A DNA stretch of 64,000 nt. Origin: Cetorhinus maximus. Its lineage: Eukaryota. This document shows, one piece after another, positions 29,461 to 31,679 of the stretch. The notes below the pieces were generated by a model. The model was not told the DNA's origin. It ran no database searches and saw nothing but the letters and a program-made list of their open reading frames with translations. The stretch covers positions 39,184,001 through 39,248,000 of the forward strand of contig NC_135896.1 in the NCBI RefSeq assembly GCF_964194155.1. The letters run 5' to 3'. Position 1 is the stretch's first letter. Each line of letters opens with the position of its first letter. A program made the translations under genes and the position numbers.

Positions 29461-30090
29461 AAAGGATAGACTTACAGATTTTTGATGTCTGCTTAAGGGC
29501 AACTTTAAGCAAGCCCTTGTAAACAGATTTATTGTAGAGTGAAGATGCATTGATTTCTAAGAAAAGTTGATGTATCCTGTGCATATGAATGTAGTAAACG
29601 TAGATAATTCTATGTTGCTAGGCAATTTAGATCACAGCAGCTCCATTATTTCACTGATGATATCATAATAAAGCAAACGCCACTATAGATGACAAGTTAT
29701 GAGTACCACCACCTATTTTAATGATAAATTTTTAAAATTACTTCTATCTCCTTTTTAAACATTTCCCACATTACAGAGACAAAAAGACAAGTAGGAAAAA
29801 TACTTCAACATCTCTGCCAATGCCACGGTGTAAAGAGCTGCAGAAAGGTGTGTGTGACCTGGAAAATTCAGTGACTTTTCCATTTATCTCTCCCTAATAT
29901 AATATAATATAAATTATATTGTCTATCATTTCAAAGTTCAAACGTGGTGAATTGCAGTAATAATTACTGATGAAATAGTAGGAGTTTTATTTTTAAAAAA
30001 AACTTGAGACTAAACTGAAAATGACGAGTTTTTTTTAAAAGCGGTTTGACAATTTTATTATTCAAATCAAATTAAACAATCCGCTAGTGT

Positions 30091-30441
30091 TTACATAGGC
30101 TTGGGAGGAGGTCCACGTGGGAGGTTGGCGCCTGGCCTGAAACGTGGAGGAGGAGTTCGGTCCTTCCTGGCCTCTCGTGAACGATTTCTTACCACTTTGC
30201 TGTGGATGGCACAGCTGACGCAGTAATGTAATTTCACGTACAGCTTGGGCAGCACGTATGCCTCAAAAACACTGGCCTCCGAAATATCTCGAACTGCAGC
30301 AGCTTCCACGATGTTGCGGATGACAAACTTCTTAATGGCTTTGTCTTTGGGGACGCAGCGGGCGCAGTTTGTGCATCTGATGGGCTGGACATGGCCACGG
30401 CCCTTCTTGGCACGTCCATTATTCCTTCGCTTCTTAGTCAT
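30091..30441 (-). CDS. RPS26: 40S ribosomal protein S26 (eS26), intronless retrocopy with an intact 116-aa ORF, inside the BAG5 intron
   Basis: [39 protein letters not shown]...[33 protein letters not shown]...PPPKPM, with no introns, stops or frameshifts. AATAAA at 30059-30054 (minus) and an A8 tract at 30036-30029. Identity is certain; expression is unknown. Confidence 0.93.
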
Positions 30442-31679
30442 CTTCAGCACGAGTCACCCCTTACTATTTTTGAAAGGAAAAAATGTTGTTTGACAAATTA
30501 CTATTGTTTTTGTTGTGAATGAATAAAATAGCCTTCCAAAATGTAATCTGTTCGCTTTCATTTAGATCATTGAACCATTGCAATGTGGTAGGTAGATTTC
30601 TTGTTCCTAGCCATCAAGCTTTCACTTAGAACTGGATAACAGTACATTGCTGTGAAATTTTTCCTCCTTACTGAGATCCTTTGTCTTGAAGAACTTCTAT
30701 GAACGTCATAAGTCGTCATTTGGAATTCCATGGGTTGGATATTCTCCATAATACCCATTTTAAGGGCTGGACCTTATTTTCACTGGGCGGCTGGCTGTGG
30801 CCAGAAATCAAGTGCCCTGGACTGCCACGGTATTGACTGGCCCTCAACTAGAGGAATGTGGGTTCTTAAGGGATGTAGGGGGACTGATCTACAAAGGGGA
30901 GAGCAGTAGCAGCCGCGCTAAACTTCTGGAGCCTGGAGCAACACTCCTGCTCCTCACTATTTCAAAAAAAAATGAAAAGGAACTTACTTCGGCATCTTCT
31001 CCAGACTGCCACTTGATGGTGGTCAGAAACAGCAGTCGGATTCCTATGTGCGCCATAGTGCCATTATTAGTAATTTAAATAGGCCTGCTCCCCGACTCAG
31101 GGTCTGGTGGCTCTTGTTGCTGGGCAGCGAGACTGGGGAAATAATGCTGCAGCTATTTCTGAGTTTGCTGTCCCATTTCTACCGGGTTGGAGATTTAAGA
31201 ATTCACCCTATGTACTGGGCCTAAAACCCTCAAACTACTATTCAGTACCTTAGCACATTTATACACCTATATTCTTTACTACCACACTATATTCTCCAGT
31301 GCCCTATGTTAAAAATTGAAGTTACATGCGAATGGGTATTTCCCATCTGGCATAACTAGATAGGGAGCCCACTGGTTTGTTAGAACTCATGCCTAGTGCT
31401 AGATGTAGAACACATTGGTTTAATGCACTGCCACAAACACTTAAGCTTCATTCCTTAAAAATCACCCCGCCATCAGAACTAGATTACACAAGTGAACAGT
31501 TGATGATTAACAATTAACAGTCGACCAGATTTACAAAGTTGCAAACAAATTCTAATCATAAAATTCTATTATACTATGTTCTGAAGCAAGGTGCAAAATA
31601 CCTTCAAATGTATTGAAGAAATTGATATCAGGAATACAGCAGCACTGAAGCACTGGCTCAGGTCAGGCTACACCTCAAA

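Follow-up and report, generated by a model that had tools for sequence, protein, structure and literature searches.

An old RPS26 retrogene lies in the BAG5 intron within the 64,000-nt stretch of Cetorhinus maximus DNA analysed here (the window). We put the probability of the following account at about 75%: the copy has been held under purifying selection, has acquired a 1138-nt intron and, with it, an upstream noncoding exon (31681-31602), and likely encodes normal eS26, its transcription likely starting at the first exon on the BAG5 side of the CpG-island promoter shared with COA8. Since its sequence has been kept under selection and it is spliced to a gained upstream exon, the copy is likely a second working RPS26 gene, which likely borrows the BAG5 promoter.

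Structure and genomic setting of the RPS26 copy

The host gene, its head-to-head partner and the copy are arranged as follows.

18431..19809, minus strand: coding exon of the host gene BAG5 (Pfam BAG x4), with an acceptor AG ending at 19810
30029..30463, minus strand: terminal exon of the retrogene, comprising leader, parental 5′ UTR, ORF, 3′ UTR, AATAAA and A8
30091..30441, minus strand: RPS26 (eS26) retrogene ORF, 116 aa, intronless and free of stops
53256..53420, plus strand: coding exon of COA8, the head-to-head partner gene (PF10231, E=5e-18)

The original prediction had described an uninterrupted, intronless 116-aa RPS26 ORF inside the BAG5 intron and on the same strand, and this is indeed found at 30441-30091, in sense orientation within the 26,755 nt that extend from the island donor at 46564 to the BAG5 acceptor at 19810. 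The ORF product matches the Pfam profile Ribosomal_S26e (PF01283) with E=4e-55, and is identical to the parent protein at 113 of 116 residues, the three changes being D60E, I107L, and Q113P. Compared to the RPS26/eS26 family (PF01283), the copy keeps Cys 23, 26, 74, and 77, which we take to be the zinc-binding residues of eS26, whereas its ORF lacks introns and the TOP tract (CTCTTT) and TATA-like promoter of the parent were not copied. Just 5′ of the BAG5 start codon, an out-of-frame upstream ATG (ATGACTCATTAG, 3 codons) is seen at 19791-19777 on the minus strand.

The terminal exon begins with a flank-derived leader of 6 nt (30463-30458), followed by 16 nt of parental 5′ UTR (30457-30442). 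Reading of the sequence bears out the start-codon context (GAAGATGA), the AATAAA at 30059-30054, and the A8 remnant at 30036-30029 that had been described, the last of which sits where other RPS26 copies too turn to A runs. The pyrimidine tract and AG noted earlier, ending at 30464 and 22 nt 5′ of the ATG, are likewise present, and belong to flanking DNA, parent-derived sequence starting at 30457. This border could be fixed because a loose contig end at 30457 in run X1 runs on into the parent's upstream letters. The insertion is a 5′-truncated RPS26 cDNA oriented like BAG5, whose intron offers an AG acceptor 6 nt before it. Retention of CpGs against CpG-depleted neighbours also holds, with an observed/expected ratio of 0.63 in 30001-31000 versus 0.29 in each adjoining kb; beyond the coding CpGs, no CpG-island promoter is evident at the retrogene itself.

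Retrocopy status, which had been concluded from the intron-containing state of vertebrate RPS26, is shown by a parent gene in the same genome (L013), which has three GT-AG introns of 904, 150, and 1038 nt and with whose spliced form the copy is colinear. The CTTCCTCTTT tract lies directly 5′ of the parent's short 5′ UTR, and the copy begins after this tract, 16 nt before the ATG. No target-site duplication of at least 7 letters was detected for the window copy (L001) or for its relative L014, the two loci tested; such an absence is expected of an old insertion, and the intron loss and poly(A) remnant are not overturned by it.

Age and selection

A six-frame genome search gave 25 matches from 43 candidates, counted as 21 loci, namely the window copy, one intron-containing gene, and 19 others, several of them with open frames. 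Sequences were fetched for 18 of these 19, one weak locus being left out; the dN/dS table leaves out the partial copies L016, L018, L019, and L020, and the tree leaves out these four and L017. Between the window copy and the parent, 22 coding letters and three residues are changed. By the Nei-Gojobori method, these comprise 18.5 synonymous and 3.5 replacement differences, for which dS is 0.27, dN is 0.013, and dN/dS is 0.05 (binomial p=1e-8). In 13 other near-full retrocopies (L014 apart), the pooled ratio is 100.5:175.5, from which the window copy is clearly distinct (Fisher p=4e-5). The suggested dN/dS comparison with the parent thus points to an intact ORF under purifying selection, as judged from substitution patterns. 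The older copies indicate that five of the synonymous changes arose on the parent's side; when these are dropped, the ratio is 13:4 (binomial p=6e-6); when half of the remaining synonymous changes are also assigned to the parent (7:4), the binomial p value is 0.005 and the Fisher p value against the dead copies is 0.07.

The 3′ UTR of the window copy differs from that of the parent at 14 of 52 positions, compared to 1-8 in 12 full-length siblings, and this, together with dS, indicates that the copy is old. The near-identity to the parental mRNA that would mark a very recent insertion is therefore not seen. Its coding sequence contains 19 CpGs; the parent has 16, and the 14 other copies scored have 7-14. 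Of the 16 parental CpGs, the window copy retains 14 and the nine older siblings 6-9.

Transcription and the acquired intron

Four of 23 candidate public runs were examined (X1, organism label A; X3 and X6, label B; X7, label C), all of them as assembled contigs whose RNA status was guessed. The retrogene is transcribed, as seen from copy-specific contigs in X1, X3, X6, and X7 (probable RNA), found under three organism labels, and from the retrocopy L014. This answers the earlier call for copy-specific reads, and two of the runs, X1 and X7, contain spliced contigs in which 30463 is joined to 31602 (CT..AC on the plus strand), skipping 1138 nt. The following features are defined by this junction.

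30464..31601, minus strand: acquired 1138-nt GT-AG intron, with donor GTATTT at 31601 and the pyrimidine tract ending at 30464 as acceptor
31602..31681, minus strand: noncoding, ATG-free exon 2, covered by contig from 31679 to 31602, with its start at 31681 placed from the preceding AG
31682..31800, minus strand: decayed repeat remnant, a 69% match to repeat copies at 46746-46839 and 5103-5209

The acceptor foreseen at 30464 is thus used in spliced contigs of two of the four probable-RNA runs. The alternative proposal, that the pyrimidine tract serves as a TOP-like start, finds no support, the tract being removed as intron in the spliced contigs. Exon 2 had been missed in the first reading of the sequence. 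Its segment has two genome matches, itself and L014, and its acceptor was likely provided by the pyrimidine-rich end of the repeat remnant, as far as can be read from the letters.

The spliced contig of X7 consists of 31679-31602 and 30463-30167, with seven differences in 375 letters and no gap, and only two of its five listed coding differences take the parent's state at the 17 diagnostic sites, so that both the parent and L014 are ruled out as its source. Parent-type contigs show 17 differences in 266 letters. In X3 and X6, the copy-specific contigs show four and three differences and end at 30029 and 30041, respectively. In X1, a contig with 28 differences runs unspliced from 30436 to 31409, indicating that the organism of label A shares the insertion site. 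Presence in relatives had been proposed as a further check, and it is borne out by this shared position. The coding differences listed for the ortholog contigs are six synonymous and one replacement. Contig depths of the copy and the parent differ between runs and are unsuited to ranking expression.

The first exon and probable promoter sharing

A CpG island at 46-47 kb, with an observed/expected ratio of 0.88, lies between BAG5 and COA8 and contains the following region.

46526..46704, minus strand: CpG-island first-exon region, contig-covered at 46704-46565, with 46580-46526 co-inserted in L014

One X7 contig (record 31) extends over 46704-46565 and departs from the genome sequence at the GT donor at 46564, with 15 further letters unplaced, so that this predicted donor is used by some RNA, the run being probable RNA. 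The exon had been called ATG-free, which does not hold if the RNA starts above 46642, where an ATG within the contig-covered part opens a 4-codon uORF. The motif CGCATGCGC at 46645 is presumably a candidate NRF1-like site, and ACTTCC[GT], at 46851 and 46695, is taken by us as a candidate ETS/GABP-like site. The island promoter also contains a repeat copy (46720-46845), which separates the exon on the BAG5 side from the COA8-side start; two similar GACATCACTTCC motifs border it, at ~46857 and ~46701, and may represent a target-site duplication. On the plus strand, contigs of X1, X3, and X6 covering 46793-47091 leave the genome at 47091, likely the donor of the COA8 first exon.

The idea that exon 1 is spliced to the acceptor at 30464 stands with regard to the acceptor, while the junction actually seen is 31602->30463 and a direct 46565->30463 splice is only hinted at by one run. 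In X3, a contig not joined to 31602 ends at 30463 when the island is included in the compared stretch and at 30464 when it is not, with 34-35 further letters; one letter shared with the intron end fits donors at 46564 or 46519, and exon 2 shares two. The direct 46565->30463 joint is not among the joints listed, and a junction between exons 1 and 2 was not read in the contigs or in L014. In X7, the 30 letters upstream of exon 2 have no match in the window at three mismatches and show a weak island match at 46411-46433 (score 26 versus 24 elsewhere). The first exon may vary between species.

For the island exon or the BAG5 5′ part, no second genome match was found, and no BAG5 retrocopy could therefore supply the BAG5 junction. 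X3 has a contig covering BAG5 at 18400-19677, and X7 is without cover of BAG5 there, so that the 5′ junction of BAG5 was seen in neither run. The claim that the RNA is drawn from the BAG5/COA8 island is upheld in so far as island sequence occurs in L014 and the 46564 donor is used; a first exon common to BAG5 mRNA and the retrogene is inferred.

A daughter retrocopy of the spliced transcript

A descendant of the window copy is found on another chromosome-scale contig.

L014:1266-1816 (G000:C14): second-generation retrocopy, rearranged at its 5′ end

L014 is sister to the window copy in the tree (100/100). It holds window positions 30465-30027 (90.7%), directly preceded by 31677-31602 (96%, 76 nt), and because it carries the 31602/30463 junction, a spliced RNA from the BAG5-intron locus was reverse-transcribed in the germline. 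Further 5′ it holds 46554-46526 (28 of 29 letters matching, E=6e-7 in the window), a match that can be extended to ~46580 if an 8-nt gap is allowed. The copy interrupts a common repeat and has decayed: codon 95 has become a stop, part of the sequence is deleted, and CpGs have been lost. Its exon 2 starts at a TGAGG microhomology with the target repeat, and ~7 nt resembling the target repeat part the island piece from exon 2, which suggests a template jump during insertion. Owing to these intervening letters, L014 was rejected as proof of the junction between exons 1 and 2; it documents the joint insertion of island sequence rather than the precise first junction.

Proposed expression pathway and alternative explanations

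In the pathway that we favour, the polymerase would start in the CpG island on the BAG5 side, and exon 1 would be spliced to exon 2 or, in some species, perhaps straight to 30463. Exon 2 would then be spliced to the RPS26 exon, ending at the inherited AATAAA with cleavage near 30040. The retrogene would serve as an alternative last exon, so that a given RNA would include either it or the BAG5 coding exon, and its mRNA is predicted to be translated to normal eS26. Because this mRNA is without the parent's TOP tract, the retrogene would follow BAG5/COA8 transcription, not the TOP programme of ribosomal proteins.

The copy could instead be a working retrogene whose own first exon and promoter, at another start in or near the island or in the intron, are independent of those of BAG5. 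The letters upstream of exon 2 in X7, which are unlike the exon end at 46565 and map weakly to 46411-46433, would be explained in this way, as would the sequence downstream of the 46564 donor in L014, from which it follows that a different 5′ exon form existed. However, weak and strong upstream matches alike fall in the same CpG island, and the behaviour of the X3 contig fits a donor at 46564 or 46519, so that we regard an independent promoter as unlikely. A young processed pseudogene, silent or passively spliced, might be suspected in a genome with 19 RPS26-like loci besides the window copy and its parent, several with open frames. This had been offered as an alternative in the original prediction and is refuted: dS of 0.27 and the 3′ UTR differences make the copy old, dN is 0.013, and the locus yields spliced RNA and has given rise to a spliced retrocopy of its own. 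We consider it highly improbable.

A further question is whether the gene once worked and, though still transcribed, is now relaxed or decaying in this species. Since the split from L014, the window copy has gained two replacements (D60E and I107L) versus three to four synonymous changes; D60 is present in the parent and in 13 of the 14 other aligned cluster members, and none of the ortholog contigs (X1, X3, X6, and X7) carries E60. A recent relaxation of selection is possible on these counts. On the other hand, the ORF, cysteines, and CpGs are intact, both changes are conservative, the X3 contig has the window state at the I107L site, and the ortholog contigs differ by 6:1 in favour of synonymous changes. 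Decay appears improbable, and the reading of a working retrogene, likely on the BAG5-side promoter, is retained.

As to its role, a second, non-TOP RPS26 gene on the BAG5/COA8 promoter might sustain eS26 synthesis under stress, while TOP mRNAs are silenced, and feed the exchange of damaged eS26 on mature ribosomes, with a splice/poly(A) switch trading the BAG5 co-chaperone for eS26. This proposal, drawn by analogy, is speculative and seems rather unlikely. Such an exchange has been shown in yeast for Rps26/Tsr2 (10.1101/2022.07.28.501866).

Comparison with known retrogenes

Rodent Utp14b reportedly uses the 5′ exons of Acsl3, and the Mcts2 and Nap1l5 retrogenes are said to have promoters of their own. 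Intronic retrogenes expressed as chimeric transcripts with upstream host exons have been described in 13 human and 14 mouse cases (PMC4772013). Host-exon capture (the class of its Fig. 2C) entails a position in a host intron and splicing to an upstream exon, and both are found here, the latter as the 31602 junction; the upstream exon and promoter should also be the host's own, which may be so here, island sequence being present in L014 and the 46564 donor being used. The class resembles the present case in the CpG-island promoter, the new intron, and the selective preservation, while our case differs in that the genome is that of a cartilaginous fish, the borrowed exons are noncoding and thus do not give rise to a fusion protein, COA8 lies on the other side of the host promoter, and the retrogene has its own retrocopy (PMC4772013).

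According to PMC5750009, rodent Utp14b lies within Acsl3, in its first intron, and primate UTP14C shares a splice junction with ALG11 and uses a noncoding 5′ exon overlapping its host. These are likewise intact retrogenes that sit inside a host gene and derive from a housekeeping gene with a ribosome-related role; they come from an X-linked parent and are described there as testis-specific. In the pairs Mcts2/H13 and Nap1l5/Herc3, intronic retrogenes are reported to alter host polyadenylation (PMC3467052), and the RPS26 copy may similarly compete with the processing of its host mRNA. The Mcts2 and Nap1l5 retrogenes are imprinted; the BAG5-intron copy is without an evident CpG-island promoter beyond its coding CpGs.

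The route of gene birth, in which an intronic retrogene captures upstream host exons, is known. No report of an RPS26 retrogene in a shark BAG5 intron was found in a search lying mostly outside subscription literature, and the main text of a study of cartilaginous-fish retrocopies makes no mention of RPS26 (10.64898/2026.06.26.734816). The same text gives 95.7% of retrocopies in these fishes as species-specific and 15.7% as keeping an ORF, which would make a shared, selected retrocopy uncommon. The exact retrogene protein is already an NCBI gene call, and the 14 listed members of its protein cluster are mammals and one teleost, with no shark. The locus offers a clean example of gene birth outside mammals, combining insertion behind a ready acceptor, a new exon next to a decayed repeat, likely promoter capture, and selection, with L014 as a record of the germline transcript. 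A second RPS26 without the parent's TOP leader would also allow the reasons for retaining two genes for an exchangeable ribosomal protein to be tested in a natural setting.

Other RPS26 copies in the genome

Four loci, L002, L003, L004, and L008 (G000:C7, C4, C5, and C10), are young parent-derived retrocopies with 94-98.6% identity to the parent mRNA, three of them with open frames, and judging from these sequences the retroposition of RPS26 mRNA is recent and repeated. In L017 (1393-1742 and 2404-2474; G000:C22), the 3′ UTR of a retrocopy is split by ~660 nt of other sequence, and the tails of L017 and L010 run beyond the usual poly(A) site. L020 (1399-1596 and 1747-1854; G000:C15) consists of two tandem RPS26 3′ fragments at one locus.
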